Part shown: positions 2,278 to 49,924 of the stretch, in pieces
Layout: each line of letters opens with the position of its first letter
How positions within the stretch are numbered: position 1 is the first letter of the stretch
Source: Thermoplasmatota archaeon
GTDB taxonomy: Archaea > Thermoplasmatota > E2 > JACPAO01 > JAHFTW01
Assembly: GCA_038046725.1 (NCBI GenBank)
Contig: JBBSVQ010000040.1
Coordinates: 9,526-73,525, forward strand
Length of the DNA stretch: 64,000 nt
Direction: 5' to 3'
Translations under genes and position numbers: made by a program
The notes under the pieces: model-generated
The model's database searches: none
Seen by the model: the letters and a program-made list of their open reading frames with translations, nothing else
Told to the model about the DNA's origin: nothing

Positions 2278-2475
2278 GGCGCGCGTTCCTCCTCGCACAA
2301 GTCCAACGCCCCTGACGGCGACGTCGGCGTGCTGCTGATGGAACCTCCCTCGAAGCGCGCGCCGAAGGCGCGCGAGGCGGCGCCCCGCGCCGCCTAGCCA
2401 ATCCACCATCGGCTTGTTGCCGTGGCCGTCGTCGTCACAAAGAGGTTGACTTGCGTGGGGCACCGAACGGGCGCC
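2278..2475 (+). mobile_element. MITE-like repeat core, copy A
   Basis: Starts GGCGCGCGTTCC and ends GAACGGGCGCC (imperfect terminal inverted repeat). The interior has GACGTCGGCG, GCGCGCCGAAGGCGCGC and GGCGGCGCCCCGCGCCGCC hairpins shared with the other copies. Confidence 0.65.
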
Positions 2476-2598
2476 GGCTGGGACTCGAAAGGCCAACGAG
2501 CGCTCGATTTCACCCAACCCTCCATTCAGTTTGCATCGAAACAAGGGGTGTTCAGGATTGTTGTCGTCCATCAACAACCTTCATATGGTTGTGCGCTA

Positions 2599-2934
2599 AT
2601 GTCACCTGTGCTATGGAAGGTCATCGAAGTCCAACTCCTGGAAGACCTGCAGGTCACGGCCGAGTTCCTGGTGGACGGCAGGGACGTGCAGGAACTCAAG
2701 GTGGTCCTGCACACGCAATCGGGCGGACCGGTCCAATGGTTGGTCCGGATCGAAACGCACGGCGGGAAACCCCACAAGCACGTCGCGTGGGACGACGAGG
2801 GGGAGCTCCGGCACAAGCAACTCAAGGGATGGCCAAGCGACTACTCCAAAGTGGTCACACGAGCCATCCAGGACCTCAAGATGAACCGAGAGATTTACCA
2901 AGCAAGGTACAAAGCATGGATGGCAAGCAAGTAG
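2599..2934 (+). CDS. Small hypothetical protein, first gene of a two-gene cassette (possible toxin-like partner)
   Basis: Internal ATG of ORF 2422..2934; the upstream part of that ORF is repeat sequence. 111 aa, contains GGKPHKHVAWDDEG. Its 3' end overlaps the next gene by 19 nt. Local GC is lower than the surroundings. Confidence 0.5.
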   Translation: MSPVLWKVIEVQLLEDLQVTAEFLVDGRDVQELKVVLHTQSGGPVQWLVRIETHGGKPHKHVAWDDEGELRHKQLKGWPSDYSKVVTRAIQDLKMNREIYQARYKAWMASK

Positions 2935-3263
2935 CCGACAGGGCACTCGACCTGGCCGAACAGCAAATGCTGGCCCTCCTGGCCAATCCGGCTGGAGCAC
3001 CCGACAGGCTCACCATCATCCCCATTCTGACGATGCTCGGAGGCCCGAACGGATTGACGCCGGCGCGCATCGCGCTGTTCATCGAAATCCGCAGCCACGG
3101 AATCTACGAACAGATTCAGGAGCTGGCGGACGCCATGGGTCGGGACAAGCACGCGGTCAGCAAGGACGTCGACGTCCTGGTGCATCACGGCCTCGTGCAC
3201 AAGCAGAAGAAAGGCCGAACTGTGACCATCGAAGCCGACAAGCGCCCCATCTTCCTCGCATGA
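2916..3263 (+). CDS. Winged-helix DNA-binding protein (possible antitoxin/regulator)
   Basis: In-frame ATG inside ORF 2451..3263. LTPARIALFIEIRSHGIYEQIQELADAMGRDKHAVSKDVDVLVHHGLV reads as helix-turn-helix plus wing, like small archaeal HTH proteins paired with toxin-like genes. Confidence 0.6.
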   Translation: MDGKQVADRALDLAEQQMLALLANPAGAPDRLTIIPILTMLGGPNGLTPARIALFIEIRSHGIYEQIQELADAMGRDKHAVSKDVDVLVHHGLVHKQKKGRTVTIEADKRPIFLA

Positions 3264-3438
3264 AGCGCTGCGGCCGGCGGGCGTGTAGGCGTTCCACCAG
3301 GAGTGGCCGAGAGCCCGCGCCGGGCCGGGTTCTCCCGGGGGCCGAGCGCAGCGAGCGCCCCCGCCGTCGCCCAACGTGCTCGTCCTTCGTTTGAAGGTCG
3401 CCCCACACGTTCTTGACCACCCATCCAGTCCCATCCCT

Positions 3439-4257
3439 GTGAGCGACGAGCGCCCATCCGTCGACCAGTACTTCATGGACATGACGCACCTCGTCAAGGC
3501 GCGCGGCACTTGCCCCCGCCGCCAGGTGGGCGCCGTCATCGTGAAGGACAAGCGCCTGCTCACCACGGGTTACAACGGCGCGCCGCGCAACTTCCCGCAC
3601 CCCATCGACGTCGGCTGCCTGCGTGACGAGCTGCAGGTCCCCAAGGGCATGCTCGCGGACATCTGCCCGTGCCTGCACGCCGAGCAGAACGCCATCCTGC
3701 AAGCCGCCACGACTGGCGTCTCCATCGAGGGCGCCGACCTGTACTGCACCACTCAGCCGTGCACGCAATGCAGCCGCATGCTGGCCAACTGCGGCATCCA
3801 ACGCGTCATCTTCGCGGAAGAGTACCCCGATCCGCTCGCCACCGGCATCCTCACCACGGCCGGCGTCGAGATGTACCATTGGGACCACGCCGCCAACAAG
3901 CTGCACCGCATCAAGGGCAACACCTTCGAGCAGGCGCAGGACCAATTGCGCAAGAAGTGGAAGGCCGGCGAATTCCACGCAGCCCCCGCGCCGGGAGCCG
4001 TCATCGGCAAGCGCCTGCCCGTGGTCCAGGGCGGCGGCGCGCAACCCTCCAACCGTCTGCGATCCGTGCCCCCGTCTGTGCCCGCGCCGCCTCCCCAGCC
4101 GGAGGAGCAATCCGGCGAGGAGGTGCCGGACGACGCATCGGGCCCGTCGGCGCGTGGCGTGCGCAACTTGCGCGACGACCCGAACCGGGCGGAACTCATC
4201 CGCCGCATGGCACAGGAGAAGGCCGAACGGCGCAAGAAGCAGCGCGAAGGCCTCTGA
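3439..4257 (+). CDS. dCMP (deoxycytidylate) deaminase with long C-terminal low-complexity extension
   Basis: ORF track 3376..4257. DQYFMDM...HAEQNA...PCTQC zinc-deaminase motifs. GTG 3439 is preferred because codons 3376-3400 are repeat sequence shared with 30968-30998. The last 130 aa or so are Pro/Ala/Arg/Lys-rich. Confidence 0.85.
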   Translation: MSDERPSVDQYFMDMTHLVKARGTCPRRQVGAVIVKDKRLLTTGYNGAPRNFPHPIDVGCLRDELQVPKGMLADICPCLHAEQNAILQAATTGVSIEGADLYCTTQPCTQCSRMLANCGIQRVIFAEEYPDPLATGILTTAGVEMYHWDHAANKLHRIKGNTFEQAQDQLRKKWKAGEFHAAPAPGAVIGKRLPVVQGGGAQPSNRLRSVPPSVPAPPPQPEEQSGEEVPDDASGPSARGVRNLRDDPNRAELIRRMAQEKAERRKKQREGL

Positions 4258-4273
4258 TCCAATCGACGCCCAG

Positions 4274-4359
4274 CCACGAGCCACGGATTGCACGGATGCG
4301 CACGGACCGTCGTTTCCGCGCCAATCCGTCGTTTCCGCGCCAATCCGTGCAATCCGTGG
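4274..4359. repeat. 9-nt-unit hairpin element, CACGGAT variant, with internal 19-nt tandem duplication
   Basis: CCACGGATT-GCACGGATG-CGCACGGAC ... CCAATCCGT-GCAATCCGTGG. The sequence CCGTCGTTTCCGCGCCAAT occurs twice in tandem (4307-4325, 4326-4344). Confidence 0.7.
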
Positions 4360-4440
4360 CAGGTCGGCGGCGTCGGCGTCGGAAGACGTTGCACCTTCGC
4401 GACCAGGAACCGGCGTGGCCGACGGTGGCCGGGAAGGCGA

Positions 4441-4992: not shown

Positions 4993-5052
4993 ATCGGCCC
5001 TCAGGCCGATGTGTGCTATAAGCAGCGATGCGAGCGCAGAACGCCTTGCGCA

Positions 5053-5385: not shown

Positions 5386-5489
5386 CGTGCCGTTGCGTGT
5401 GGGTTGTTTGCCGCCAGCCGTCGGGCCGCCGGGGCCGGCCCGGCGCAGCCGGCGAGCAGGAATCCAAACGCCAGCACGGCTGCGCGCAT
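5382..5489 (-). other. Lipoprotein signal-peptide mini-ORF (MRAAVLAFGFLLAGC...) out of frame with the downstream ORF
   Basis: Internal ATG at 5489 of ORF 5382..5576. Classic signal peptide plus LAGC lipobox. It ends in ATGA overlapping the start of 5053..5385. Confidence 0.45.
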
Positions 5490-5511
5490 GGCGAGGAGTT
5501 TGGCGCCCGCC

Positions 5512-6195: not shown

Positions 6196-7109
6196 GCCTT
6201 CTTCTGCCCGAAGACCAGCGGGCGCGCAGCGCCCGTTGCGGGGGTGGCGGTGGTGGCGGGCGTGGGCGTGCCTGGGGCCGACGGGTTGACCGGCGCTGAT
6301 GCGCCGCCCAGCACCATCTTGTCAAGGTCCGGGGGGACACCCATGATGGAGTAGCCGCCGTCCACGTACAGGGTCTGGCCCGTCACGCCGGAGCCCAGGT
6401 CCGACAGGAGGAACAGGGCGGACTTTGCGACGTCCTGTTGAGACACGTTGCGGCCCAGGGGCGCGCTGTGCTTCATCCAGTCCAGGATCATGCTGAACCC
6501 CGGCACGCCCGATGCGGCAAGGGTGCGGATGGGTCCGGCGCTGATGGCGTTCACGCGCACGCCCTTCTCGCGGCCGCAAGTGAAGCTCAATTCACGGGTG
6601 AGTTCCTGCAACGCGGCCTTGGCGGCGGACATGACGCGGTAGCCGGGCACGAAGCGGTCGGCGCCAAGGTAGGTCAGGCACACGATGGCGCCATCCTTGT
6701 TCATGTGCGGCATGGCGTGGCGGGTCAGGCGCACGAGGGAGTAGGCGGAGACGCCGAGGGCGGTGTTCCAGTCGGCCTCCGTGGTGCGCACGACTTCGTC
6801 CTGCAGCGCCGAGGCGGGGGCGAAGGCGATGCAGTGCACCATCATGTCGAAGCCGGCCGGGTTCTTGGCGTGGCTTTGCTGGAAGAAGGAGGCAACCGAC
6901 TCCTCGATGGCAGCGTCGCACTCGAACTGCCCTTCAATCCAGGGCTTGTCCTTGAAGAGGCCCATGATGCGCGACAGGAAGCGCTTCTGGTACCCCATGG
7001 TGACCTTGGCGCCGTGGCGGGCGAGTTCCTCGGCGATGGCCCAGGCGATGGAGTCCTCGGAGGCGACCCCGAAGACGACTGCGCGCTTGCCGGCCAGACT
7101 GAACGTCAT
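6192..7109 (-). CDS. fabI: Enoyl-[acyl-carrier-protein] reductase (NADH), FabI-like SDR, with Pro/Thr-rich C-terminal tail
   Basis: ORF 6192..7187 with internal ATG 7109. GKRAVVFGVASEDSIAWAIA and YRVMSAAKAAL (Y-x6-K) are typical of FabI. Confidence 0.85.
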   Translation of the reverse strand: MTFSLAGKRAVVFGVASEDSIAWAIAEELARHGAKVTMGYQKRFLSRIMGLFKDKPWIEGQFECDAAIEESVASFFQQSHAKNPAGFDMMVHCIAFAPASALQDEVVRTTEADWNTALGVSAYSLVRLTRHAMPHMNKDGAIVCLTYLGADRFVPGYRVMSAAKAALQELTRELSFTCGREKGVRVNAISAGPIRTLAASGVPGFSMILDWMKHSAPLGRNVSQQDVAKSALFLLSDLGSGVTGQTLYVDGGYSIMGVPPDLDKMVLGGASAPVNPSAPGTPTPATTATPATGAARPLVFGQKKA

Positions 7110-7149
7110 CGCCTCTGGCCACGGGCGTCGCGGATTGAAGGCTTTCGAC

Positions 7150-8808
7150 CTAGCGGCGCCGCACGAGGGCAACGGCCAACGCCGCAAGGGTCGCCCCGAA
7201 GGCCAGGCCGGGGGTGGATGCGGACCCGGGGGCGTCCGGCGGCGGTGGCGACCAAAGGGGATCCGGTAGCGGTCGTTGCGGAGGATGGACGATCAGGAAA
7301 TCGAGGGCGTTTCCTCCGTTGCCTTGGCGCCCTGCGAAGGCGAGTCGGCCGTCGTCCGCGACGGCGAGGGCCACGTGGTTGTGGAGGTTGCCGAGGTCGA
7401 TGAGCTGGACATCGCCGTCCAACCAGCGGACCCAGGCGTCACCGGTGCTTCCGTATTCGCCCACGACGGCCATGTCCCCGGCGGCCCCAGCGGCCAACTG
7501 CATCTGGAGACAGGGGTTCCCGCCCGGGCACGCCGGCAAGCCGTCGCGCACGGCGCCACCTTCCCGTTCCCAAAGGAAGCGCGGGTCGCGGTCGCCCGCA
7601 TCCCACACGAAGGCCGGGTCGCCCGCCAGGTCAACCGCGAACCCGAAGGAGCCGTCGTCGGAGACGCTGCGGCCCTCCTCATAGACGTCGGCGATGTCCC
7701 GGATCCGCCAATCATCGGCCTCGGAGGCGACGTGCAGCTGGCCGCCCTTGGACCAGGCTGCCTGGACGGTGCCGTCGCCGGCCTGCGCCAGTTCGAGCGA
7801 CGCGGAGCCGCCGATGGCATGAATCTGCGTCCAGTTGCCGGCCTTGCGTTCCAGGATGGCGTGCCCGGTCGCGATGGGCATCGAGAGGACCATGCGCCCC
7901 CCTTCCCAGGAAAGGTCGGCCGCCGTCCCGGCTCGCAGGCTGGTGGCCGTCGGCGACTCCTGACTCCACGCCGTCCCGTTCCAGAGGTGCAATTGCAGGC
8001 GGGTCGCGCTCGTCGCCAGCAGGGCCACTTGGGGCCCCGAGACGGCAATCACCGTGCGGTCGTCTTGACCGCCGGCCTGGGTCGACAGACGCTGCCATGC
8101 CAATCCCGTCTCGTTCTGTTGGGCATACCACAGGCCGGGTTGGGTGGGTCGGTCTGGCATCTCAGGTCCCGTGCCAGTGACCCATGACGCGGCATGCAGG
8201 GGCGCATCTGGGCCGTCACCAAACGCGATGCTGGCGCCGGCAGCCTGGTAGGGTCCAACCAGGCGATCGTCGACGTCCGAGCGCAGGAAAGCGTGGTTGA
8301 TTCCCGTACCTGAGTCCGGCGCGCGGTCTGCGGTGGCGCCAAGCGGTCCGGTGCTGTTGAGCCAGGCGACCGTGTCCACGACGAGGTCCCCCTCGATGAG
8401 GTCCGTCCCCTCGCCCAGCAAGCCCTTGGTGTCAAGCAGGATGTGGAATTCCGAGGCCGTGGGGGAACCGGAGAACTGCAGCCGGTCGCTGATGTCCTGG
8501 CCGTCGCGCAGGAGGCGCAGAACGGTGCCGTCGGCTTCAATGCGGAACGACGTCCGGTTGGCGCCGTGCAGGACGCTGAACGCCATCGTCGACCAGTAGC
8601 GGTCTTGCAGGCCCGGGTTCGGGTCGGGGTCAACGTAGGAGAAATGGTCGAGCAGCACGTTGAGGGTCGTCGGTGCGTCCCGGTACTCAAGCTGGACAAG
8701 GTCCGCCCGCAAATCGATGCCCCCTTGGTCCATCGTCGGGTCGGTGGCCACGACGGTGGCTCCCGCGGTCGGCAACAAGGCAATTGCAAGCCAACACCAC
8801 CCACGCAC
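7150..8808 (-). CDS. Secreted surface (glyco)protein with PGF-CTERM-like anchor
   Basis: ORF track. N-terminal signal peptide, several N-x-S/T sequons. The C-terminus TPGLAFGATLAALAVALVRRR resembles an archaeosortase PGF-CTERM signal. Confidence 0.7.
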   Translation of the reverse strand: MRGWCWLAIALLPTAGATVVATDPTMDQGGIDLRADLVQLEYRDAPTTLNVLLDHFSYVDPDPNPGLQDRYWSTMAFSVLHGANRTSFRIEADGTVLRLLRDGQDISDRLQFSGSPTASEFHILLDTKGLLGEGTDLIEGDLVVDTVAWLNSTGPLGATADRAPDSGTGINHAFLRSDVDDRLVGPYQAAGASIAFGDGPDAPLHAASWVTGTGPEMPDRPTQPGLWYAQQNETGLAWQRLSTQAGGQDDRTVIAVSGPQVALLATSATRLQLHLWNGTAWSQESPTATSLRAGTAADLSWEGGRMVLSMPIATGHAILERKAGNWTQIHAIGGSASLELAQAGDGTVQAAWSKGGQLHVASEADDWRIRDIADVYEEGRSVSDDGSFGFAVDLAGDPAFVWDAGDRDPRFLWEREGGAVRDGLPACPGGNPCLQMQLAAGAAGDMAVVGEYGSTGDAWVRWLDGDVQLIDLGNLHNHVALAVADDGRLAFAGRQGNGGNALDFLIVHPPQRPLPDPLWSPPPPDAPGSASTPGLAFGATLAALAVALVRRR

Positions 8809-11641: not shown

Positions 11642-11797
11642 CAATCCGCCGATGACGCCGATGAACGATTCCCACATCGGCGGGTTCGGCGTCATCGCGG
11701 GTTCGTCGCTGCATGGCGAACCCATCCACCGATGACACCGATGCCCACCGATGAACGGTCACCGCATCGGTGCCATCGGTGGGAATCGGTGGATCGG
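11642..11797. repeat. Double hairpin composite (CGCCGATG hairpin + CACCGATG hairpin)
   Basis: Its reverse complement aligns by eye along its whole length with 62799-62960. Confidence 0.8.
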
Positions 11798-12200: not shown

Positions 12201-12403
12201 GGCGCGCGTTCCTGGCCCCGCCGTTCCCACGTCTCCCGACGCCGACGTCGGCGACTTGCTCCACAACCATTTCCCGAAGCGCCGCGCGAAGCGCGGCGAG
12301 GCGGCGCCCCGCGCCCGCCCAGGTTTGCATTCATCGGTTTGAGGTCGCGGTCGGAGTCGTCGTCGGAAGGAGGTTGACTGGCGAGGGTCACCGAACGGGC
12401 GCC
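12201..12403 (+). mobile_element. MITE-like repeat core, copy B
   Basis: Same termini and internal hairpins as copy A, aligned by eye. Confidence 0.65.
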
Positions 12404-12575
12404 GTCGGCTGTTCAGAAAGGACGCCGACTTTGGTCGAGAGCCGACGAACTCGAGGCCGAACGCCGCGAGATGCGGCGCGAGGCGGGCCTGCCCAATCGG
12501 CGAGGCGAGCGTTGGAAACGCGAGCCGAGCGCATGGGGGTTCAGGGGGCCCGCAGGGCCCCCTAGCCTAGGTTTC

Positions 12576-12959: not shown

Positions 12960-13015
12960 CCACGACTTGCACGAAGGCCACGAACCAGGCTTCGTGCGGT
13001 TCGTGCAATTCGTGG
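12960..13015. repeat. 9-nt-unit hairpin element, CACGAA variant
   Basis: CCACGACTT-GCACGAAGG-CCACGAACC aggc TTCGTGCGG-TTCGTGCAA-TTCGTGG. Lies between divergent gene starts. Confidence 0.8.
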
Positions 13016-13074
13016 TTGGTGAAGGATGGCGCCCGTGCGAAAAAGGCCTTCACCGACGCCCCCCTGGCCATGGC

Positions 13075-15150
13075 GTGGCGCAACAGGCGACCGGGAAACC
13101 CAACGCGCTCGCTTCCGAGCCGAGCCCGTACCTGCGCCAGCACATGCACAACCCCGTCGACTGGCGGCCCTGGGGCGACGCTGCCTTCGCGGAAGCCCGC
13201 CGCCGCGACGTCCCCGTCTTCGTTTCCATCGGGTACGCCACCTGCCACTGGTGCCACGTCATGGCGCACGAGTCCTTCGAGGACCCCGCCGTGGCCGCCC
13301 TGATGAACGCCGCCTTCGTCAACGTCAAAGTCGATCGCGAGGAGCGCCCCGACATCGACGACTCCTGCATGGCCGTCTGCCAAGCCATGACGGGCTCCGG
13401 CGGATGGCCGCTCACCGTCGTCATGACGCCGGACCGCAAGCCGTTCTTCGCGGGAACGTACTTCCCGAAGCAGTCGCGGCATGGCCGCATCGGCATGCTC
13501 GACCTCGTGCCCAGAATCCAGGAGGCCTGGGTCGGCAAGCGCGCTGAATTGATGGGGCAGGCGCAGGAGATCCTCGACCACGTCGGCCACGAGCACGCCC
13601 GCGAGGCAATCGAGCTTGGCGAGGCGACCCTGGTCGCGGCCGAGCAGGCGATGGCAAAGCGCTACGACGCTGCGCGCGGCGGCTTCGGCGTCGCACCCAA
13701 ATTCCCCTCCCCGCACACGCTGCTCTTCCTTCTTCGGCGCTGGTCACACACGCGGGACGCGGCGACGCTGCGCATGGTGACGCACACGCTGCACGCGATG
13801 GCGGACGGCGGCATCCACGACCACGTCGGCGGCGGCTTCCACCGCTACTCCACCGACGCGCAGTGGCTGCTGCCGCACTTCGAGAAGATGCTGTACGACC
13901 AGGCGATGCTGGCCATGGCGTACACCGAGGCTTGGCAAGCAAGCGGGGACTCGCGCTTCGCCGACGTCGCGCGCGGCATCCTGGACTATGTCTTGCGCGA
14001 CCTGCAAGACCCGGCCGGAGGGTTCCGGTGCGCCGAAGACGCGGACTCCGAAGGCGAGGAGGGCAAGTTCTACGTGTGGGCGCGGCCCGAGCTGAAGGCC
14101 CACCTTGGTCCCGACGCCGACCTCGTGGCTGCGGCGTACGGCGTCGCGACCGAGGGCAATTTCCACGACGAGGCCACGCACCGGCTGACGGGCGCCAACA
14201 TTCTCCACCTGCCGCGACCCCTGGCTGACGTCGCGAAGGCAAACGGCCTCAGCGTGCCTGATCTCGAGGCGCGCCTCGCCGCGGCTCGCGCCAAGCTGCT
14301 CAACGTCCGGTCGAAACGCGTGCGCCCGCAACTCGACGACAAGGTCCTCACCGATTGGAACGGACTCGGCATCGCCGCGTTCGCCAAAGCCGGGCACGCC
14401 TTGCAGGAGCCGCGCTACGTTGCTGCCGCCGTTGCAGCCGCGACGTTCCTTCGCCGCGAGATGCGCGACGGCAACGGTCAATTGCTGCACCGCTGGCATG
14501 CCGGCCGCAAGGACGACCGCAGCTTCCTCGACGAGCACGCCTTTCTGCTGTGGGGCCTCGTCGAGCTGTACGGGGCCACGTTCGACCCCGCTTGGCTCGC
14601 CTGGGCGCAGGACGTGGCAGACCAACTGCTCGAGCGCTTCGGCGACGGGCGCGGCGGCTTCACGCTCAGCCCCAAGAACGCAGAGGAGTTCGGCGTGAAG
14701 CGCCGCGACGCCTACGATGGCGCGCTGCCGTCCGGCAATTCCGCTGCGGCCTACGCCCTCTTGCGCCTGGGCCTGCTGACTGGCGAGGACCGCTGGTCTG
14801 CTGCGGGGCGCGGCGTCCTCGACTCGTTCTCCGCACAAGCGGGGGAGCACCCGCAGGCGTTCACCATGTTGCTGTGCGCGCTGGACCTCGACATCGGCCC
14901 CACCCGCGAACTCGTGGTGGCCGGCGAAGGCCCGGTCGCTCAACGCCTGCTGGACGTCGCGCGGCACGGGTTCCAGCCACGCCTGGCGGTCCTGCATGCG
15001 CGGTCCGGACTGGCCAAGGTGGCCCCCTGGACGGCGGACCACAAGCCGCTGCCCGCCGGCGCGGCAGCCTACCTGTGCGAAGGGCAGGCCTGTCAGGCAC
15101 CGACGTCGGAGGCAGGCTTTCTCGCGAAGCAATTGGCCACCAAACCCTAA
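13075..15150 (+). CDS. Thioredoxin-domain protein YyaL/DUF255 (SPATA20-like)
   Basis: ORF 12607..15150. [18 protein letters not shown]...[16 protein letters not shown] is the family signature. GTG 13075 chosen, start uncertain. Confidence 0.88.
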
Positions 15151-15174: not shown

Positions 15175-15597
15175 GTGCGCACACTGGCCTTGGCCATTTT
15201 CGTCGTTCCCGCGGCCGGCTGCCGCGACACCCTGGGCTTCACGTGGATGGAGGTGCGCGGGGACGTCCTCACGACGCGCATCCACGATGTCAACGGAACC
15301 TTGCTGTTCCAACGGGTCTTCGACCGAGCCGATCCGGCACGCTCCACGGCGATGGAGCCTGGGCAGGCTCAGGCGCGGTTCACGCCACGTTCCTTGAGGA
15401 GAGCCCGGACGCGGTGCTCAATGTCGTCGCGGACGCGGCGGAATTCCGCCAGCGGCTTTCCTTTGGGGTCGTCCAAGTCCCAGTCGAGGAGCGGCTTGCC
15501 GATGAAGGCTGGACAGGCGTCGTCGCCGCAGCCCATGGTGACGACGAGGTCGCAGGCGTCGCGCACCCAGGCCTCATCGAAGCCCTGGCTCGGATGA
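15175..15597 (+). CDS. Putative small lipoprotein, 3' end uncertain
   Basis: ORF track. The GTG start gives VRTLALAIFVVPAAGC (lipobox), and GC3 is high over the first 65 codons or so. The ORF then runs 230 nt antisense into arsC, so the true stop is doubtful. Confidence 0.3.
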   Translation: MRTLALAIFVVPAAGCRDTLGFTWMEVRGDVLTTRIHDVNGTLLFQRVFDRADPARSTAMEPGQAQARFTPRSLRRARTRCSMSSRTRRNSASGFPLGSSKSQSRSGLPMKAGQASSPQPMVTTRSQASRTQASSKPWLG

Positions 15598-15818
15598 CCG
15601 GAGATGTCGATGCCCTTCTCCCGCATGGCCGCGATGGCTTCGGGCAGGACGTACCCCAGGGGCTTGCTGCCGCCGCTGCGCGCCTCCACGCGAACGCCAC
15701 CGAAGGCGCGTGCGAAGCCCTGCGCCATCTGGCTGCGGGCGCTGTTCCCCACGCAGGCGAACAGGACGCGGAACGGCGGCTGGCGGGGACGCTGCGCCGG
15801 TGTGGTCGCCACGCTCAC
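15369..15818 (-). CDS. arsC: Arsenate reductase, LMW-PTP/thioredoxin-coupled type
   Basis: ORF track. CVGNSARS P-loop plus the Cys pair in TMGCGDDACP, equivalent to Cys10/82/89 of the pI258 and B. subtilis ArsC. Confidence 0.9.
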   Translation of the reverse strand: MSVATTPAQRPRQPPFRVLFACVGNSARSQMAQGFARAFGGVRVEARSGGSKPLGYVLPEAIAAMREKGIDISGHPSQGFDEAWVRDACDLVVTMGCGDDACPAFIGKPLLDWDLDDPKGKPLAEFRRVRDDIEHRVRALLKERGVNRA

Positions 15819-16534
15819 TGCGCCCCCGTTGAGTGCAAGTCAATGGGGCCGAGGGCGCCCAGCGTTTCGCCGGGGTGCGGCTTGCGGGCACCGCGCAGCC
15901 ACTCGTACGTCGCCATGGCTGCGCAGGCACCTGCGACGGGCATGGCAAGGTAGAGCCACAGAGCGTCTCCCTGCAGGTCCACGAGGGCGGGGCCGAGCGT
16001 CCGCGCCGGATTGGTGGACGAGCCCGTGAGGGGCCCGGCCCAAACGGAGTTCACGGCGACGGTGAGCCCGATGGCGATGCCGGCGAAGCCCTGCGACGCG
16101 CGCTTGTCGGTGGCGACGCCGATGATGACGAGGCCGAGGAGGAACGACGCCAGGAACTCGACGGCGGCCGCTGCGGGGATGCCGAGTCCGTCACGCAGCG
16201 TCGTCGTGACCGGGCCGACGCCATCGAAGACCCAGTCGAGCAGCACAGCCGCCGCCAAGGCACCAAGAAGTTGCGCAGCCAAGTAAGGGCCGACGCGGCG
16301 CCAGGGGAAGTGGCCCGTCAGAGCGAAGGCGATGGTGATGGCCGGATTGTAGTGTGCGCCGCAAACGTGGCCGAGGGCGTAAATCAAGACGGCGACGGCA
16401 AAGCCGAAGGCGAGGGCGACCGCGAGCGAGCCGGCCCCGTCCAGGATTGCTGCGCCTCCGGCGAGGACGAGGAAAAACACGCCGAGGGCCTCGGCGGCCT
16501 CGGGGCGCAGGTCGGGCACGAACGCGGGACGCAC
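15815..16534 (-). CDS. MIP-family channel (aquaporin/aquaglyceroporin)
   Basis: ORF track. Two NPA boxes (HYNPAITIA, STNPARTLG), six hydrophobic helices. Stop overlaps the arsC start (ATGA). Confidence 0.9.
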   Translation of the reverse strand: MRPAFVPDLRPEAAEALGVFFLVLAGGAAILDGAGSLAVALAFGFAVAVLIYALGHVCGAHYNPAITIAFALTGHFPWRRVGPYLAAQLLGALAAAVLLDWVFDGVGPVTTTLRDGLGIPAAAAVEFLASFLLGLVIIGVATDKRASQGFAGIAIGLTVAVNSVWAGPLTGSSTNPARTLGPALVDLQGDALWLYLAMPVAGACAAMATYEWLRGARKPHPGETLGALGPIDLHSTGAQ

Positions 16535-16581
16535 TCGGGCCCTAAAGGAGCCGCTATGCCCAGAGAGGGTGCACGCGTTGC

Positions 16582-16661
16582 GTCATCGGTGGGCATCGGT
16601 GACATCGGTGGATGGCCTTGCCAGGAGCGGGCCAATCCAGATGACACCGAGGTCACCGATG
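16582..16661. repeat. 9-nt-unit hairpin element, CACCGATG variant (GGATGG/CCAATCC next to loop)
   Basis: GTCATCGGTGG-GCATCGGTG-ACATCGGTGGATGG ... CCAATCCAGATG-ACACCGAGG-TCACCGATG. Confidence 0.8.
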
Positions 16662-16683
16662 CGGTTTCCCTGCGCGCGGAGAA

Positions 16684-17289
16684 TCAGGCCACGGCTTGCG
16701 CGGCCTTGGCCTGCTTGCCCTTGAGGACCTTGGCGAGGCGGTTGATGCGCTTCTCCAGTTCCGCGGCGACGAGGCGGTGGCCTTCCAGGGGGAGGCCGGT
16801 CGGGTCCCACACGTCGTTCCACTCCTCGATGCGTGCGCCCTCGCGCCAGGCATCGGGGATGCGGGCCTCGAAGAGGATGACGCGGTCGAAGGCCCCCAGG
16901 CGGGCGGGGTCGAGCAGCTTCGGCCGAACGCCGGACAGGTCGAAGCCCTTCTCGCTCATGGCCTCGACGACCTCGGTGGGCACCGCGGGCGCGGGCCACG
17001 TGCCGGCGGACTCGGCATACAGGCCGGCCTGGCGCGCGAAGGCCTCCGCCATCTGGCTACGGGCGGCGTTGCCCGTGCAGACGAAGAGGACGCGGGGGTC
17101 CCGGTGCTTCTTGCGGGTGACGGTGCCCGCGGGCGCGACGGCGTCGCTGGACGAGCCCGACATGAAGCGGCGAACCGGCTCCCACAGCTTGTCGAAGCGC
17201 GAGATGCGCTTCGAGCGCCCCTCGGCGGCGGGCGGCGTGTTCGGCTGGGCGGGCGGCGAGGCAGGCGCGGCGCCGGCGGTCTCGTCCAT
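16684..17289 (-). CDS. LMW protein-tyrosine-phosphatase / ArsC-like protein with 60-aa N-terminal extension
   Basis: ORF track. CTGNAARSQMAE P-loop but no second Cys pair. CTTAAAG box 24 nt upstream of the ATG. Confidence 0.75.
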   Translation of the reverse strand: MDETAGAAPASPPAQPNTPPAAEGRSKRISRFDKLWEPVRRFMSGSSSDAVAPAGTVTRKKHRDPRVLFVCTGNAARSQMAEAFARQAGLYAESAGTWPAPAVPTEVVEAMSEKGFDLSGVRPKLLDPARLGAFDRVILFEARIPDAWREGARIEEWNDVWDPTGLPLEGHRLVAAELEKRINRLAKVLKGKQAKAAQAVA

Positions 17290-19939: not shown

Positions 19940-20103
19940 AAGGGAACTGCGGGCGGAGACTCCGTTCAGGACGAATCCGGGGGCACCCCACTCCGAGAGG
20001 CGCGGGCCGCCGCGAATTGTCATATTTAAACTCTATGCGGAAAGGGGATGGTCCTACGGCGGCGAAAACCGGCCTCGCCGCCCCGGTGGCGGGAAGAGGA
20101 CTC

Positions 20104-23604: not shown

Positions 23605-23608
<4 letters not shown>
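22730..23608 (-). CDS. Conserved hypothetical protein
   Basis: ORF track. GLKVRCAG and FKATQGLHHP motifs, which I recall from an uncharacterised family and cannot name. Coupled at both ends: ATGA with the FAH gene, a 1-nt overlap with the isochorismatase start. Confidence 0.6.
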
Positions 23609-24642
<1,034 letters not shown>

Positions 24643-24697: not shown

Positions 24698-24884
24698 GGC
24701 GCCCGTTCAAGGCATGCCAGTCAACCATCTCCGACGACTCCGACCACCACTTCGAGCCGATGTTGACGTACCTTGTCGGCGGCAGGCGCCGCCTCGCGCG
24801 CCTTCGGCGCGCGCTTTGGGATGCTTGTGCTGCAAGCCGCCGACGCCGGCGTCGGATACGTTGTCATCAGACCAAACGGGCCCC
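24698..24884 (-). mobile_element. MITE-like repeat core, copy C (one end degenerate)
   Basis: Reverse orientation. Starts GGCGCCCGTTC, central GGCGCCGCCTCGCGCGCCTTCGGCGCGCGCTT. The distal end is diverged. Confidence 0.55.
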
Positions 24885-25998: not shown

Positions 25999-26033
25999 TC
26001 CCGCTCGCGCCCGTTCTGGGCCGCCGACACGAG

Positions 26034-26210
26034 TTAACCTCTTTCCGACGGTGACGACGCCGACGGCATCAAACTCTTGAAGCCGAGGAGGGACGGCGCG
26101 GGGCGCCGCTGGCGAACCTTCAGGGCGTCCGTCAGCGGGGCGATGCTGAAGAGCGCCGCGGCCATGCCCACCGTGTTCGCGGCGAACGGGACCCAGCGCC
26201 AAAACCTCAT
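26034..26210 (-). CDS. Possible small membrane protein
   Basis: C-terminal 58 aa of ORF 26034..26480, from ATG 26210. One hydrophobic segment, high GC3. Weak call. Confidence 0.3.
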   Translation of the reverse strand: MRFWRWVPFAANTVGMAAALFSIAPLTDALKVRQRRPAPSLLGFKSLMPSASSPSERG

Positions 26211-27554: not shown

Positions 27555-27636
27555 CCTCGGTGCCCTCGGTGGGCATCGGTGGATGGTTCAGACTCTTCAC
27601 TCGCCCATCCACCGATGGCACCGATGCCCACCGATG
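27555..27636. repeat. 9-nt-unit hairpin element, CACCGATG variant
   Basis: CCTCGGTGC-CCTCGGTGG-GCATCGGTGGATGG ... CCATCCACCGATG-GCACCGATG-CCCACCGATG. Confidence 0.8.
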
Positions 27637-27699
27637 TCCGGTCGCGCTGACTGGCTGGCCTCGGACCGACGATGGTTCGTTGGCTCCGACCGGACTCCG

Positions 27700-28700: not shown

Positions 28701-28893
28701 GGCGCGCGTTCCTCCTCGCACCCGTTCAACGACTTCCGACGCCGACGCCGGCGACTTGCCCTAGAAACAGCGTTCGAAGCGCCGCGCGAAGCGCGGCGGG
28801 CGGCGCCCGGCGCCGCCAGGGATGGCTAGGACTTGCTGGCCGTTCCCGTCGGCGTCACGAGGAGGTTGACCCGTGGGGCGATGAACGGGCGCG
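28701..28893 (+). mobile_element. MITE-like repeat core, copy D
   Basis: Same termini and internal hairpins. Begins 11 nt after the corA stop. Confidence 0.65.
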
Positions 28894-29816: not shown

Positions 29817-29856
29817 ACCAAGAAATTGGGCTTTTGAGCGACACGCGAGGACTTCT

Positions 29857-29937
29857 TCATCGGTGGGCATCGGTGACATCGGTGGATGGGCCTGGCATGG
29901 GTCTGACCATCCACCGATGACACCGATGTCACCGATG
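29857..29937. repeat. 9-nt-unit hairpin element, CACCGATG variant
   Basis: TCATCGGTGG-GCATCGGTG-ACATCGGTGGATGG ... CCATCCACCGATG-ACACCGATG-TCACCGATG. Confidence 0.85.
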
Positions 29938-29963
29938 TGGCACTTGGTCCCGCCTAGGCCACT

Positions 29964-31106: not shown

Positions 31107-31283
31107 GCGCCCGTTCCTGGCCCTACAAGTCAACCTCCTTGTGGCGCCGACTCCGACGACGAGGTCAAGCCGCTGAAGGCATGTCTTGGCGGCGCGGGGC
31201 GCCGCCTCGACGCATGATGCCTGGGCAAGTCGCCGCCGTCGGCGTCGGAAGGCGTTGGGTGGTCCCGAGGAGGAACGCGCGCC
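31107..31283 (-). mobile_element. MITE-like repeat core, copy E
   Basis: Reverse orientation. Ends GGAACGCGCGCC. Part of a composite spanning about 30968-31337. Confidence 0.6.
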
Positions 31284-35054: not shown

Positions 35055-35072
35055 GTGGGCGCCCGCAAACCA

Positions 35073-35154
35073 CATCGGTGACATCGGTGTCATCGGTGGA
35101 TGGTCTGGCGCGTTGGCGGGCCCATCCACCGATGCGCACCGATACCCACCGATG
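35073..35154. repeat. 9-nt-unit hairpin element, CACCGATG variant
   Basis: CATCGGTG-ACATCGGTG-TCATCGGTGGATGG ... CCATCCACCGATG-CGCACCGAT-ACCCACCGATG. Lies between the ABC-F stop and the moeB-like start. Confidence 0.85.
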
Positions 35155-37622: not shown

Positions 37623-37638
37623 CACCGGCACGAAACAA

Positions 37639-37717
37639 CATCGGCGTCGTCGGCGACATCGGCGGATGGTTGGCCCATTGGGTGACCAATCCGCCGATGG
37701 CGCCGAACGCGCCGATG
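37639..37717. repeat. 9-nt-unit hairpin element, CGCCGATG variant
   Basis: CATCGGCG-TCGTCGGCG-ACATCGGCGGATGG ... CCAATCCGCCGATG-GCGCCGAAC-GCGCCGATG. Confidence 0.8.
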
Positions 37718-37730
37718 TGGGTTCCTGGCG

Positions 37731-39422
37731 CTAGGGTTCCGGCGTGCCGAACTTGCCGGCCAGGCGGGAGCCCTTCGGCCAGCCACCGGACGTCGCCTGC
37801 ACCTCGAGGCCGGGCCGGATGGCGCCCGTCGGGCACGCATCGAAGCAGGCGCCGTCGGCGATGCACAAGTCGCGATCCACGCGGGCCATGTCGGTGACGA
37901 TGGCGGCGTCCGTGGGGCATGCGGCTTGGCAGCCGTTGCACACGATGCAGTCCGCGGCGAGCACCCAGGCCTTCTTCTCCTCCGGGAGGGTCTTGGCGAA
38001 GGCCTTCACTGCGGGAACGTCCTTCGGGTTGCCAGTGAACTTGCCACCGACAGCCTCGGGCGCGACAACCGCCGCGGGGCTCGACGCGGGCGTGGGCGGA
38101 GCCGGCGTGGCCGCGGGGGCCTTCGCCTGCTTGGGCGCCTCGTGCACGACGGGCGATGCCGCCTGCGGCACAGAGCCCACAGAGGACACCGAGTCAGACT
38201 TCTGCGCGCTCTGTGCCTTGGGGAGCGGGGTAGCCGCGGTCCCCGGCGGGGGCACGGCGGCCGGCTTGGTTCCCGACTTCACCGCGCGCTCGGCGGCGGC
38301 CTGACGGTCGGCGTCGAGGGTGTCCTTCGTGGGCACCATCCACTTGGCGGTGGCGAGCTTGCGTTTGTTGGCCTCCGCGATGAGGGCGTCCACGTGGCCC
38401 TTCCAGTCGCCGACGAGGCCGAGATCGGAGTACTGGAAGATGGCGGCGCTCGGGTCGGAGTTGATGGCGATGATGGTGCCCGACTCCTTCATGCCCTCGA
38501 TGTGCTGGATGGCGCCGGAGATGCCGACGGCGATGTACAGCTTGGGACGGACCGAGATGCCGGTCTGGCCGACTTGGCGGCCGCGCTCCATCCAGCCCTT
38601 GTCGGCGACGGGGCGCGAGCAGGCGACTTGGCCTCCCAGGGCCTGGGCGAGCTCCTCGAGCTTGGCGAAGCCTTCCGGGCCGCCGATGCCGACGCCGCCG
38701 GCGACGAGGACGTCGGCCTTCGTGATGTCGGCCTTGACGTCATCGACGACGTAGGAGATGACTTGGGCGGCGTACGTCTTGCCGTCGAGCCACTTCGTGT
38801 CGGCGTTGTGCACCTTGCCCGACCGCTTGGTGTCGGGGTGGAGGGGCTTGAAGATGCCGGGGCGCGCCGTGGCCATCTGGGGGCGGTGGCGGTCGCAGCG
38901 AATGGTGGCGAGCATTTTGCCGCCGAAGGCCGGGCGGCGGGCGAGGAGTTCGCCGTTGACGGCGTCGACGTCGAGTTCCGTGCAGTCGGCCGTCATGCCG
39001 GCGTCAAGGGTCGCGGCCACGCGGGACGAGATGTCGCGGCCGGTGTGCGTGGCGCCGATGAGGACGATGTTGGGCTTGTGTTGCTCGATGAGGGCGTTCA
39101 GGACGTCCGTCGAGGGGCGGGCCAGGGGGGTCTTCAGGACAGGGTGCTGCGCCAGGATGACTTCGTCGGCGCCCGCGTGCAGGCACTGGGCGGCGAGGTC
39201 GGTGACTTGGTGGCCAAGGATGACGGCGGTGACCTTGTGGTGCAGCTTCTCCGCCATGGGGCGCGCGGCGCCGAGCAGTTCGAGGGTGACCGGGCGCAGT
39301 TGGCCGTCGCGGTGCTCCACGATGACCCAGACGCCCTTCCAGTCCGCGAAGGAGTCGCAGGGTTTGCAGGCGCGGAACTGGATGGCGTCGTAGCGGCTCC
39401 CCTTGCGACGGGACCGATCCAC
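37731..39422 (-). CDS. etfA: Electron transfer flavoprotein alpha subunit fused to a C-terminal 2x[4Fe-4S] ferredoxin domain
   Basis: ORF 37731..39512. EtfA core (AVGISGAIQHIEGMKESGTIIAIN), then a 110-aa Ala/Pro-rich linker or so, then CIVCNGCQAACP...CIADGACFDACP. GTG 39422 chosen, start uncertain; upstream codons are hairpin repeat. Confidence 0.85.
   Translation of the reverse strand: MDRSRRKGSRYDAIQFRACKPCDSFADWKGVWVIVEHRDGQLRPVTLELLGAARPMAEKLHHKVTAVILGHQVTDLAAQCLHAGADEVILAQHPVLKTPLARPSTDVLNALIEQHKPNIVLIGATHTGRDISSRVAATLDAGMTADCTELDVDAVNGELLARRPAFGGKMLATIRCDRHRPQMATARPGIFKPLHPDTKRSGKVHNADTKWLDGKTYAAQVISYVVDDVKADITKADVLVAGGVGIGGPEGFAKLEELAQALGGQVACSRPVADKGWMERGRQVGQTGISVRPKLYIAVGISGAIQHIEGMKESGTIIAINSDPSAAIFQYSDLGLVGDWKGHVDALIAEANKRKLATAKWMVPTKDTLDADRQAAAERAVKSGTKPAAVPPPGTAATPLPKAQSAQKSDSVSSVGSVPQAASPVVHEAPKQAKAPAATPAPPTPASSPAAVVAPEAVGGKFTGNPKDVPAVKAFAKTLPEEKKAWVLAADCIVCNGCQAACPTDAAIVTDMARVDRDLCIADGACFDACPTGAIRPGLEVQATSGGWPKGSRLAGKFGTPEP
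38167..38217. repeat. 9-nt-unit hairpin element, GCAGAG/CACAGAG variant, inside the etfA linker coding region
   Basis: GGCACAGAG-CCCACAGAG-GACACCGAG tcag ACTTCTGCG-CGCTCTGTGCC. Translated on the minus strand as KAQSAQKSDSVSSVGSVPQ. Confidence 0.7.
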
Positions 39423-39490
39423 CGATGACACCGATGTCACCGATGCGGTTGCCGTGCCGGCCATCGGTGTCATCGGTGACATCGGTGGAT
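39416..39490. repeat. 9-nt-unit hairpin element, CACCGATG variant (ATCC ends distal)
   Basis: ATCCACCGATG-ACACCGATG-TCACCGATG cggttgccgtgccggc CATCGGTG-TCATCGGTG-ACATCGGTGGAT. Lies between etfB and etfA. Confidence 0.9.
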
Positions 39491-39508
39491 TCGTTTCGTG
39501 GGCGGGAG

Positions 39509-42608: not shown

Positions 42609-42796
42609 CGCGCGCGCTCCTGGCCCCAACCGTGCAACAGCTTCCGACGCCGACGGCGGCGGTTTGCACCACCAAGACTCGAAGCAGCGCGCGAAGCGCG
42701 CCGAGGCGGCGCCCCGCGCCGCGGCCAATCTCTGGCTTGTGAGCGTCGTCGGAGTCGTCACAAGGAGGTTGAATTCTGTGGCAATGAACGGGCGCC
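42609..42796 (+). mobile_element. MITE-like repeat core, copy F
   Basis: Left end GCGCGCGCTCC (diverged), right end GAACGGGCGCC, central hairpins conserved. Confidence 0.6.
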
Positions 42797-44440: not shown

Positions 44441-44463
44441 GGCCTTGACAATTGCCGGGCCCC

Positions 44464-46733: not shown

Positions 46734-46785
46734 AGGTTGGCCAGGTGCCCTCTGATTTCAAGGGTTCGATGGGTGGCGGCACGAC

Positions 46786-46985
46786 GGCGCGCGTTCCAAC
46801 TTGCGACCGAATGGCGCTTTCTCCGCCGACGGTGGCGGCTTGCCCAGGGATGCGTTGGCGAAGCGGCGCGCGTAGCGCGCCGAGGCGACGCCCCGCGCCG
46901 CCAAGGGACGTCATCAGAGGCTTGACGGCGGCGTCGGCGTCGCCGTCAGAAGGAGGTTGACTGGCGTGGCGCCCGAACGGGCGCG
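46786..46985 (+). mobile_element. MITE-like repeat core, copy G
   Basis: GGCGCGCGTTCC ... GAACGGGCGCG. Lies between the ABCE1 start and the MBL hydrolase. Confidence 0.65.
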
Positions 46986-46990
46986 GTCGA

Positions 46991-47998: not shown

Positions 47999-48070
47999 CA
48001 GTTCCGGGGAACGCAGCCCATTCACCGACCTCGCCGTAGGTTCCTCGAGGAGCCTCGTGTTTCCTCAGCC

Positions 48071-48268
48071 ATGGTCCGAACCCGTGACGCCACAACCATC
48101 GAACTCTCCGTGGTCCTGCGCGACCGTCTCCTGCGGTTGAAGGTCCACGAGCGTCAGGCCTGCCACGAAGTCATCGAGGAGGCCCTCGACGTCTATGAGG
48201 ACCTCCTTCGTGAGGGGACGCCGCGGGCCGAAGTCTTATCGGCTTCCTCCGAGTCGGCGCCGACGTGA
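48071..48268 (+). CDS. Small ribbon-helix-helix-like protein
   Basis: ORF track. The TTIELSVVLRDRLLRLKV...HEVIEEALDVYE pattern is compatible with the strand-helix-helix of CopG/RHH. Stop overlaps the lipA GTG (GTGA). Confidence 0.45.
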   Translation: MVRTRDATTIELSVVLRDRLLRLKVHERQACHEVIEEALDVYEDLLREGTPRAEVLSASSESAPT

Positions 48269-49224
48269 CGGGACTGCCGAACCTTCCTTTGGCTGGGGCG
48301 AGCCCGTTGCCCGGAAGTGGTCGTCCGAGGTTGCCGGAGTGGTTCAAGGTCAAGGCGCCCAGCGGGCAGGCTTACACGGAGATTAAGCAGGCGTTGCGCG
48401 AGCGCGGCTTGTCGACGGTGTGTGAGGAGGCGCGTTGTCCCAACCTTGCGGAATGCTGGTCGGGGGGGAAGTCGGGGAAGGGGACGGCGACCATCATGGT
48501 GATGGGTGGCGTGTGCACCCGGGGGTGCCGGTTCTGCTCCGTTCCGACGGGCAAACCGGGCCCTCTCGACGTGGAGGAGCCGAGGAAGGCCGCGGAGACG
48601 GTGGGCATCATGGGGGTCGGGTACGTCGTCATCACGAGTGTGGACCGCGACGACCTGCCGGACCGCGGTGCCGACCACTTTGCGAAGGTCATCGAGCGCT
48701 GCAAGGCTGACCACCCGGAGGTCCTCGTCGAAGTGCTGACGCCGGACTTCGCCGGCAACCCGGACGGGCCCCGCCGCATCGTGGCGGCCAAGCCGGACGT
48801 CGTCGCGCACAACATCGAGTCGGTGCGCCGCCTCACGCCGCTCGTGCGCGATCGCCGGGCCGCTTACGAGCAGAGCCTTGCCGTGCTGCGGGCCTACAAG
48901 GCCGCCGGGGCGAAGTACACGAAGACGAGCATCATGGTCGGCTTTGGCGAAGCCGAAGCGGAGGTCCTCGAGACTCTCAAGGACTTGCGCGCCGCCGGCG
49001 TCGACATCGTGACTTTCGGTCAGTACCTGCGCCCGACGCAGGAGGCCCGTCATCTGCCGGTCACGGAATTCGTTCACCCGGACCAGTTCGCGAAGTACCA
49101 GCGCATGGCCGAGTCGTTGGGGTTCCTCTACGTGGCGTCGGGGCCGCTCGTGCGTTCATCGTACAAGGCGGGCGAGTTGTTCCTTGAAGGCATGATTCGC
49201 GGCGCGAACCCGAAGGTGGCGTGA
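48265..49224 (+). CDS. lipA: Lipoyl synthase
   Basis: ORF track. CEEARCPNLAECW and radical-SAM CTRGCRFC motifs. Confidence 0.95.
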   Translation: MTGLPNLPLAGASPLPGSGRPRLPEWFKVKAPSGQAYTEIKQALRERGLSTVCEEARCPNLAECWSGGKSGKGTATIMVMGGVCTRGCRFCSVPTGKPGPLDVEEPRKAAETVGIMGVGYVVITSVDRDDLPDRGADHFAKVIERCKADHPEVLVEVLTPDFAGNPDGPRRIVAAKPDVVAHNIESVRRLTPLVRDRRAAYEQSLAVLRAYKAAGAKYTKTSIMVGFGEAEAEVLETLKDLRAAGVDIVTFGQYLRPTQEARHLPVTEFVHPDQFAKYQRMAESLGFLYVASGPLVRSSYKAGELFLEGMIRGANPKVA

Positions 49225-49727
49225 TGGAGCCCACCGAACTGCTGCCCTACTTCCAGCTCGTGGGACAGATTGCCCTCGTCGTCGGCGCCGGCGTGGCCGT
49301 CTACCAGCTGATGCAGTTGCGCCAGTCGCGCCATTCGGAGGCGGCGCTGCAAGTCATTACGAGTCTGCAGACGCAGGAGTTCCGCGACGCCTTCAACCTC
49401 GTCAATGAATTGCCGCTCGGGGCGACGGCGGACCAGGTGCGCGCCGACCCGCGCGTCGAGACTGCGGCGGGCACCATCATGATGACGTTCGAGACGCTCG
49501 GTGTTCTCGTGCATTCGCGCATCGTTCCCATTGAACTCGTGGACCAGGTCATCGGCGGGTTCCTGCGCGAGTCCTGGCGCCGCCTGGAGCCGTACACGAT
49601 GTGGAAGCGCAAGGCCATCGGCTCCGCGCGTTGGGGCGAGTGGTACCAGTGGCTCTTCGAGCACCTGGCCGTGAACCCGAGGCGCCAGCAAGGTGCGTAC
49701 GAGGTCTTCCGCGAGTGGAAGGCCTGA
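49224..49727 (+). CDS. Hypothetical protein with N-terminal TM helix (DUF4760-like?)
   Basis: ORF track 49221..49727. ATG 49224 overlaps the lipA stop (TGATG). Family assignment is from memory only. Confidence 0.5.
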   Translation: MEPTELLPYFQLVGQIALVVGAGVAVYQLMQLRQSRHSEAALQVITSLQTQEFRDAFNLVNELPLGATADQVRADPRVETAAGTIMMTFETLGVLVHSRIVPIELVDQVIGGFLRESWRRLEPYTMWKRKAIGSARWGEWYQWLFEHLAVNPRRQQGAYEVFREWKA

Positions 49728-49729
49728 CC

Positions 49730-49924
49730 GCGCCCGTTCGGTGCCCACGCGCAACCAACGTCTTGTGACGCCGACCCCGACGCCGAGGTCAAGCCAGTGA
49801 TTTCTTGGCGGCGCGGGGCGCCGCCTCGCGCGCCTTCGGCGCGCGCTTCGGCACCTGTTGCGTGTGCAAGTCCCCGTCGTCGGCGTCGGAAGGCGTTGGA
49901 CTCGTGCGAGGAGGAATGCGCGCC
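49730..49924 (-). mobile_element. MITE-like repeat core, copy H
   Basis: Reverse orientation. Starts 3 nt after the stop of 49224..49727. Its reverse complement aligns almost end to end with copy A. Confidence 0.65.

Follow-up and report, generated by a model that had tools for sequence, protein, structure and literature searches.

The 64-kb stretch analysed here in full (the window), part of contig JBBSVQ010000040.1 from a Candidatus Thermoplasmatota metagenome-assembled genome (MAG), contains a dense family of non-coding repeats with a unit of about 200 bp, inverted termini and a hairpin-forming centre. On balance, these repeats probably represent an old, lineage-restricted family of non-autonomous foldback mobile elements, resembling transposable elements of the miniature inverted-repeat type (MITE-like), in a high-GC soil Thermoplasmatota species. 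The copies are listed below; c1 to c8 denote the eight copies that had already been delineated from the sequence alone, and the bit scores are those of a covariance model, R1.

2278..2475, + strand: c1, intact; 106 nt downstream of the stop of an Fe-ADH gene (1101-2171, Pfam); 182.6 bits.
4313..4421, - strand: internally deleted copy of about 109 nt, both ends kept and the middle lost; between convergent deaminase (stop 4257) and AAA_17 kinase (stop 4441) genes; profile hidden Markov model (HMM) positions 9-67, E 3e-8; 36.9 bits, E 1.5e-4.
12201..12403, + strand: c2, intact, the top-scoring copy; in the divergent region between an HhH-GPD glycosylase gene (start 11725) and a DUF255 thioredoxin-like gene (start 12607); 191.7 bits.
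24698..24884, - strand: c3, 5' end degenerate; 56 nt upstream of the start of an FAA-hydrolase gene (24642); 147.1 bits.
26002..26204, - strand: degenerate full-length copy, the 3' half well preserved including GAACGGGCGC, the 5' half decayed; HMM E 1.6e-12; 76.5 bits over model positions 1-208.
28701..28893, + strand: c4; 10 nt past the CorA stop codon (28690), between convergent genes; 174.9 bits.
31107..31283, - strand: c5, with hairpin P2 deleted; 115 nt upstream of the start of a ParA/Mrp-type ATPase gene (30992); 171.2 bits.
42609..42796, + strand: c6; between the FKBP stop (42878) and the ETF-QO start (42504), antisense to both; 161.2 bits.
46786..46985, + strand: c7; flanked by the divergent genes for RLI (start 46733) and a metallo-beta-lactamase-fold (MBL-fold) protein; 170.8 bits.
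49730..49924, - strand: c8; 2 nt past the DUF4760 stop codon (49727), between convergent genes; 178.8 bits.

The eight initial copies, 177-203 bp in length, belong to one family, being alignable end to end after reverse-complementing c3, c5 and c8. The profile HMM built from them scores each at E = 1e-42 to 1e-52, and the covariance model at 147-192 bits, so that both their positions and their orientation (five +, three -) are confirmed. Searches with the two models add the two decayed members at 26002-26204(-) and 4313-4421(-). The density of about one copy per 8 kb, initially calculated from the eight copies, which all stand, is raised by these two additions to about one per 6.4 kb, and the ten copies occupy approximately 2.9% of the window. 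Extrapolated from this single 64-kb window, the local density corresponds to 125 per Mb for the intact copies and 156 per Mb for all ten. Pairwise identity among the copies ranges from 56 to 77% (mean 69%), in a star-like pattern with no close pairs.

The 3' terminus GAACGGGCGC is present in all eight original copies, and its nine exact matches in the window all fall within copies, against 0.99 expected from dinucleotide shuffles (none of 100 reaching nine). Five copies have an exact 5' end GGCGCGCGTTCC; c8 differs from it at one position, and in c3 and c6 this end has degenerated. The two termini are complementary at 11 of 12 bases and extendable to 15 nt, with helix 1 paired at 94.4% across the copies. 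Reading of the flanks indicates that the true inverted termini probably span about 15 nt, GACGGCGCGCGTTCC / GGAACGGGCGCCGTC, with a central G.G mismatch that is kept in nearly all copies. The inverted termini proposed by the sequence-only reading are therefore a genuine property of the family, the 3' end being stricter than the 5' end and the probable length being 15 nt. The unit's two arms fold onto each other as a single long imperfect stem, and two 8-bp GC hairpins, P2 (with a GAA loop) and P3, occupy the centre of the unit; the three interior palindromes and the AAGGAGGTTGA segment noticed previously are likewise present. The parts are most easily located in c2:

12201..12212, + strand: 5' terminal inverted repeat (GGCGCGCGTTCC).
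12280..12298, + strand: apical hairpin P2 (CGCCGCGC-GAA-GCGCGGCG); its stem sequence varies among copies while the pairing is kept.
12300..12319, + strand: apical hairpin P3 (GGCGGCGCCCCGCGCCCGCC), the most conserved segment of the family, column identity 0.90.
12393..12406, + strand: 3' terminal inverted repeat (GAACGGGCGCCGTC).

A role of AAGGAGGTTGA as a ribosome-binding site was considered and rejected: the segment is more likely just stem sequence, because it pairs with the opposite arm and lies at least 46 nt from any plausible start codon at c7.

These data also dispose of a chance or compositional resemblance among GC-rich intergenic stretches, whose probability is practically nil. GC-rich palindromes are common in a genome of 68% GC, and when public genome collections were scanned for the two termini separated by a variable gap, more than 106 loci turned up across all phyla; these are chance matches, since none of them matched the family HMM. 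Against such a coincidence stand the E values of the full-length alignments and a terminus that is nine-fold over expectation and found only in copies, and the explanation is refuted.

All ten copies are intergenic, as established by frame analysis of GC content at third codon positions (GC3) and by Pfam: two lie in divergent, five in same-direction and three in convergent settings. The flanking open reading frames (ORFs) have coding-type GC3 and Pfam support, in agreement with the initial description of the repeats as strictly intergenic, and the abutment on stop codons that it mentioned is seen at c4 and c8. No ORF or coding capacity is common to the copies. Among the approximately 40 window ORFs scanned, no transposase or integrase domain was detected, as had been anticipated, and no RAYT/Y1 transposase gene is found in the window. 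The same negative result for transposases extends to about 73 kb of the species' sequence, comprising the window and L137, an 8.8-kb extension of its left end.

Comparison with relatives indicates that the family is lineage-specific. Eight related loci (L107-L110, L134-L136 and L141; about 90 kb), whose RLI protein is 86-97.5% identical and whose coding DNA is 83-90% identical to that of the window, contain no copy detectable by the HMM or the covariance model, where the density of the window would predict more than ten. Furthermore, the sites corresponding to c5, c6, c7 and c8 are short or occupied by unrelated sequence in the relatives. Upstream of the Mrp/ParA gene, where the orthology of the neighbouring gene was checked, the gap measures 40 nt in L109 vs 368 nt in the window (c5). 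The FKBP/ETF-QO gap measures 55 nt in L109 vs 373 nt in the window, and the c6 site is empty in L109, L110 and L134. The gap between the MBL-fold gene and RLI is 81 nt in L109 vs 257 nt in the window, the c7 site being empty in L109, L134 and L141. Finally, the DUF4760 gene overlaps its convergent neighbour in L109, vs a spacing of 285 nt in the window, so that the c8 site is empty there. Empty sites, a test suggested in advance, are thus found for c5-c8, but the intergenic DNA of the relatives, not alignable even at 97.5% RLI protein identity, is too diverged for alignment across the exact junctions. The relatives retain the promoter-like motifs CTCATAAACC (by c6) and GAACCCTTGAAATCAG (by c7), which fall just beyond the limits of the units, the end of c7 being about 20 nt upstream of the RLI motif; the insertions therefore spared these motifs.

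In three of these relatives, the interval between the MBL-fold gene and RLI, where the window has c7, holds a small gene of 64-71 aa with a hydrophobic N-terminus and several Cys residues (L107 7734-7949, L108 3270-3485, L136 1304-1498). This gene is absent from the window, L134 and L109.

L111, a contig from another assembly of this species (GCA_964365265.1), matches the window at 99.9-100% identity over 18.6 kb and carries c7 and c8. At the position of c6 it has a gap of 100 N (13782-13881) replacing 354 nt that include the copy; the apparent absence of c6 from this 99.9%-identical sequence was considered as an insertion polymorphism and discarded on this account. L137 contains no copy and has two gaps of 100 N, at 6340-6439 and 8707-8806, which may hide further ones. 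When JGI metagenomes were scanned for an AT-containing 3' pattern, only two of the 22 loci retrieved proved to be true copies (L118 and L121), both at contig ends. Independent assemblies are thus interrupted at copies, by the gap at c6 in GCA_964365265.1 and by the ends of L118 and L121, which lie inside a copy. Scans of IMG/VR found no copies, nor did blastn against plasmid and phage collections. The L121 contig, on which a full copy is located, also encodes two paralogous zinc-ribbon proteins of 64-68 aa (79-273 and 521-727), with the motif CxxC...RPVYCRDCF and a Gly-rich N-terminus.

From this distribution we infer that the units were once mobile and were served by an enzyme. A transposase encoded elsewhere in the genome would have recognised the termini, and probably the hairpins too, and would have copied or moved the unit into intergenic DNA. 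Selection would then have removed insertions within genes, and the remaining copies would have decayed in place; the spread itself would have taken place within the lineage, after its split from the sampled relatives. Such a mobile element explains why the copies are dispersed in both orientations, confined to intergenic DNA and missing from orthologous sites, and it accounts for the truncated and degenerate members and the assembly breaks.

Target-site duplications were sought as direct repeats of 2-10 bp, at offsets of 0-8 nt outward on each side (81 offsets), with the flanks of different copies paired as a control. The best matched fraction, 0.36-0.56 across the repeat lengths, is not above this control, so that the search proposed together with the family's first description yielded no duplication at any offset, leaving room only for very short, eroded ones. 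Since a divergence of about 15% from the consensus would leave duplications of at least 4 bp visible in several copies, the duplication is probably truly absent. Consequently, the mobilising enzyme was probably not a typical staggered-cut DDE transposase. Prokaryotic MITEs are defined as elements of about 50-800 bp, without a transposase gene and with inverted termini of at least 10-15 bp, for which a related autonomous insertion sequence with the same termini provides the transposase (PMC11602168, PMC10969869). The family agrees with these definitions in size, inverted termini, lack of coding capacity and multicopy, dispersed, intergenic occurrence, and departs from them in the 2-10 bp target-site duplication. 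Because of this last point, and leaving the parent element aside, the family is best termed MITE-like rather than MITE. The original designation as a MITE-like repeat family is retained in this sense: dispersed non-coding units in both orientations between genes, with inverted termini, decayed members and absence from relatives, and without the duplication.

The interior of the unit provides evidence of a different kind. Conservation is uneven, with values of 0.84-0.86 at the termini, 0.90 in P3, about 0.75 in the arms and 0.66 in the spacers. The P2 stem occurs in three sequence versions, all of which pair: GCGCGCC/GGCGCGC, GCCGCGC/GCGCGGC and GCGCGC/GCGCGC with a shifted CC step. In a 12-row alignment compared with column shuffles, standard pairs occupy 92.9% of the cells vs 86.6% in the shuffles and 26-48% with the partners slid. 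Pairs changed on both sides number 11 vs 6.3, a value reached by none of 500 shuffles; six of the 11 are located in P2 (helix 5), where six of the eight pairs are changed on both sides. In the union of pairs predicted for either strand, G-U cells (25) outnumber A-C cells (8), and the folding energy of the + strand is lower in seven of nine copies. About 11 of the 25 G-U cells stem from two ancestral positions, and the strand bias is therefore only suggestive. The folding z-scores of the + strand are modest (-0.9 to -4.9), because any sequence so rich in GC folds strongly. Taken together, the compensated substitutions in the interior hairpins and the strand bias indicate that this structure is under some constraint, unlike what is expected of a plain decaying MITE.

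Two other explanations draw on these same observations. In the first, the copies are host-functional structured RNAs or RNA/DNA motifs, such as transcript-end stabilisers or protein-binding sites, which are selected at their sites and are not, or no longer, mobile. The excess of paired cells and of double changes, the preference for G-U over A-C and the energetic advantage of the + strand, together with the uneven conservation culminating in P3, are in line with this possibility, as is the fact that, of the five copies between same-direction genes, four are in sense orientation. We nevertheless consider it quite improbable, given that no site is conserved, the copies being absent at orthologous positions in all sampled relatives, and that orientation is mixed, with c6 running antisense to the genes on both sides and c8 to its abutting gene. 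Moreover, the unit reads as having neither an A/T-rich promoter-like box nor a T-run, the z-scores are modest, and the covariation resides mostly in one helix with three versions, which could have been inherited from a few source copies; the shuffle control ignores the relatedness of the copies. Rfam gives no match in the window at the gathering score, and its E-value mode returns for c2 only the chance-level CRISPR-DR29 (E = 5.3). A structured-RNA match with covariation, named beforehand as the outcome that would speak against insertions, was thus not obtained.

In the second explanation, the copies are elements like REPINs or PATEs, which an HUH/Y1 transposase (of the RAYT or IS200/IS605 TnpA type) would mobilise in the form of single-stranded DNA, reading hairpin shape rather than sequence and leaving no target duplication. 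IS200/IS605-type elements are common in archaea. The lack of target-site duplications is as expected for such an element, and so is the maintenance of the P2 hairpin through compensated changes in three sequence versions; the G-U excess and the lower energy of the + strand would follow if one strand were the active one. However, IS200/IS605 derivatives lack inverted termini and insert by a fixed tetra- or pentanucleotide, whereas the flanks here share no motif, and the conserved hairpins are central in the unit instead of beside the ends. A standard IS200/IS605 derivative is disfavoured by the inverted termini, the central hairpins and the absence of any motif common to the flanks, and these features equally separate the family from PATEs. 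In addition, no Y1 transposase was seen in the approximately 73 kb of genome sequence read. REPINs, known from bacteria, typically measure about 70-110 nt, unlike the archaeal unit of about 200 bp described here. This mode of mobilisation is therefore rather unlikely in our assessment. We give similarly little weight to a more specific variant, an archaeal counterpart of REPINs in which a hairpin-recognising enzyme spreads the units, about 200 nt long, in single-stranded form, with termini and apical hairpins under selection; if it were true, the units might have a role for the host as RNA or DNA hairpins between genes.

The preferred interpretation as MITE-like mobile elements has to be weighed against several observations that do not favour it. 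No target-site duplication is found, and no solo terminus or longer, possibly autonomous, relative exists within the 64-kb window. Genomes close enough for junction alignment show no filled-versus-empty polymorphism. With identities of only 56-77% and no close pairs, the spread appears to be old, with no sign of recent activity. Finally, given the uneven conservation and the P2 stem preserved through three sequences, the copies could be kept by the host for a function instead of being parasites. Most simply, the conserved termini and the compensated P2 stem would reflect constraints acting on the source copies, that is, the needs of the mobilising enzyme.

Some further candidates were rejected. 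Integron attC sites have RYYYAAC at the 5' end and GTTRRRY at the 3' end and form same-direction arrays between cassettes; in the present family the order is GTT first, AAC last, whichever strand is read, and the copies are dispersed in both orientations among housekeeping genes. A CRISPR repeat and a tRNA-derived origin were likewise dismissed, with no tRNA in the window and no CRISPR-related match other than that at E = 5.3.

Among known systems, the family is closest to prokaryotic MITEs, with which it shares size, inverted termini, the lack of a transposase gene, many dispersed intergenic copies, a stem-loop and taxon specificity (PMC11602168, PMC10969869). Archaeal MITEs are known as the SM elements of Sulfolobus and from Halobacterium and Haloquadratum (PMC10969869), and the highest archaeal densities, summed over all families, are 100-146 per Mb (PMC11602168). 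The 125-156 per Mb extrapolated from our single window for one family equals or exceeds these values. Unlike MITEs, the family lacks target-site duplications, is GC-rich rather than AT-rich, has no known parent insertion sequence and keeps its central hairpins by compensated changes. Full-text searches of one literature library returned no paper mentioning both MITEs and Thermoplasmat*, and none with the terminus strings.

Resemblances to other palindromic repeats are also evident. Like bacterial REP/REPIN sequences with their RAYT enzymes, the units are GC-rich extragenic palindromes with inverted halves forming a long hairpin, no target duplication and conservation of shape over sequence. 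In contrast, they are two to three times longer, show no conserved REP-type tetranucleotide head and occur in an archaeal host, with no RAYT in the window. ERIC/Correia-type sequences resemble the units in being imperfect palindromes over their full length of 100-200 bp, placed between genes in either orientation, but are not similar to them in sequence. The ERIC and Correia families are bacterial, unlike the archaeal one described here, and Correia elements have a TA duplication. PATEs, non-autonomous haloarchaeal elements derived from IS200/IS605, are not known to have terminal inverted repeats and bear their hairpins by the ends. The present family is, like them, archaeal, non-coding, palindrome-bearing and free of target duplications, and differs from them in its inverted repeat ends and central hairpins.

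The family itself looks new and of a common kind, small parasitic DNA, which is here unusually dense and without the usual insertion footprint. The mobile elements of uncultured Thermoplasmatota are almost unstudied, and one family present at over 100 copies per Mb would account for roughly 3% of the genome in this region. As the repeats visibly fragment the assemblies of the species, they matter for the quality of metagenome-binned genomes in this lineage. With its missing target duplication and structure-preserving changes, the family may offer a way into an as yet undescribed mechanism of archaeal transposition; apart from that, it is an ordinary genomic parasite.

The host is a Candidatus Thermoplasmatota MAG, and the GC content of the window is 64-72% throughout. 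The assumption that the sequence is part of an archaeal chromosome is borne out, because the RLI/ABCE1 protein of the window is identical to MEK6976583.1 from a Candidatus Thermoplasmatota MAG and the next matches all come from Thermoplasmatota/Thermoplasmata MAGs. The GC content and an HVO_A0114-type domain had pointed to a haloarchaeal host, an idea rejected on the basis of these closest proteins. The genes of the window are of the housekeeping type and include RLI/ABCE1, a 2-oxoacid dehydrogenase complex, ETF, ETF-QO, lipoyl synthase, ArgJ, CorA and a Mrp/ParA ATPase. A homogentisate dioxygenase-like gene, a gene for fumarylacetoacetate hydrolase and one for a two-domain glyoxalase/dioxygenase (4-HPPD-like) lie near each other (18617-20023, 23605-24642 and 26245-27468) and suggest a tyrosine/homogentisate degradation cluster, inside which c3 and the degenerate copy at 26002-26204 are situated. 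At 15369-17289, two LMWPc genes (low-molecular-weight phosphatase/arsenate-reductase type) flank a MIP-family channel gene, in an arrangement that looks arsenic-resistance-like.

The window also contains a second, distinct class of repeats: near-perfect hairpins, 65-105 nt long, whose arms each repeat one heptamer three times at a 9-nt period, either ATCGG[T/C]G or TTCGTG[C/G]. The arms read CATCGGTG three times followed by CACCGATG three times, or CACGAA three times followed by TTCGTG three times. Heptamer triples with a period of 9 number 18 in the window, vs 0-1 for periods of 8, 10, 11 and 12. Their positions are as follows:

11647-11760, 16583-16673, 27566-27643, 29856-29949, 35072-35142, 37626-37730, 39414-39506 and 62809-62964: hairpins of the ATCGGYG class.
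12989-13017, 53480-53545, 60584-60645 and 61535-61563: hairpins of the TTCGTG class.
L134 7721, L135 8377-8443 and L137 2023-2095: heptamer hairpins outside the window.

These hairpins, with folding z-scores of -6 to -7.6, sit directly after stop codons or between the genes of operons and are candidates for terminator-like elements, processing sites or protein-binding sites. They have no Rfam match, and the class may deserve an analysis of its own. Both heptamers recur in the relatives, including the orthologous ETF-beta/alpha junction in L135, and the heptamer hairpins are better conserved across species than the foldback family.

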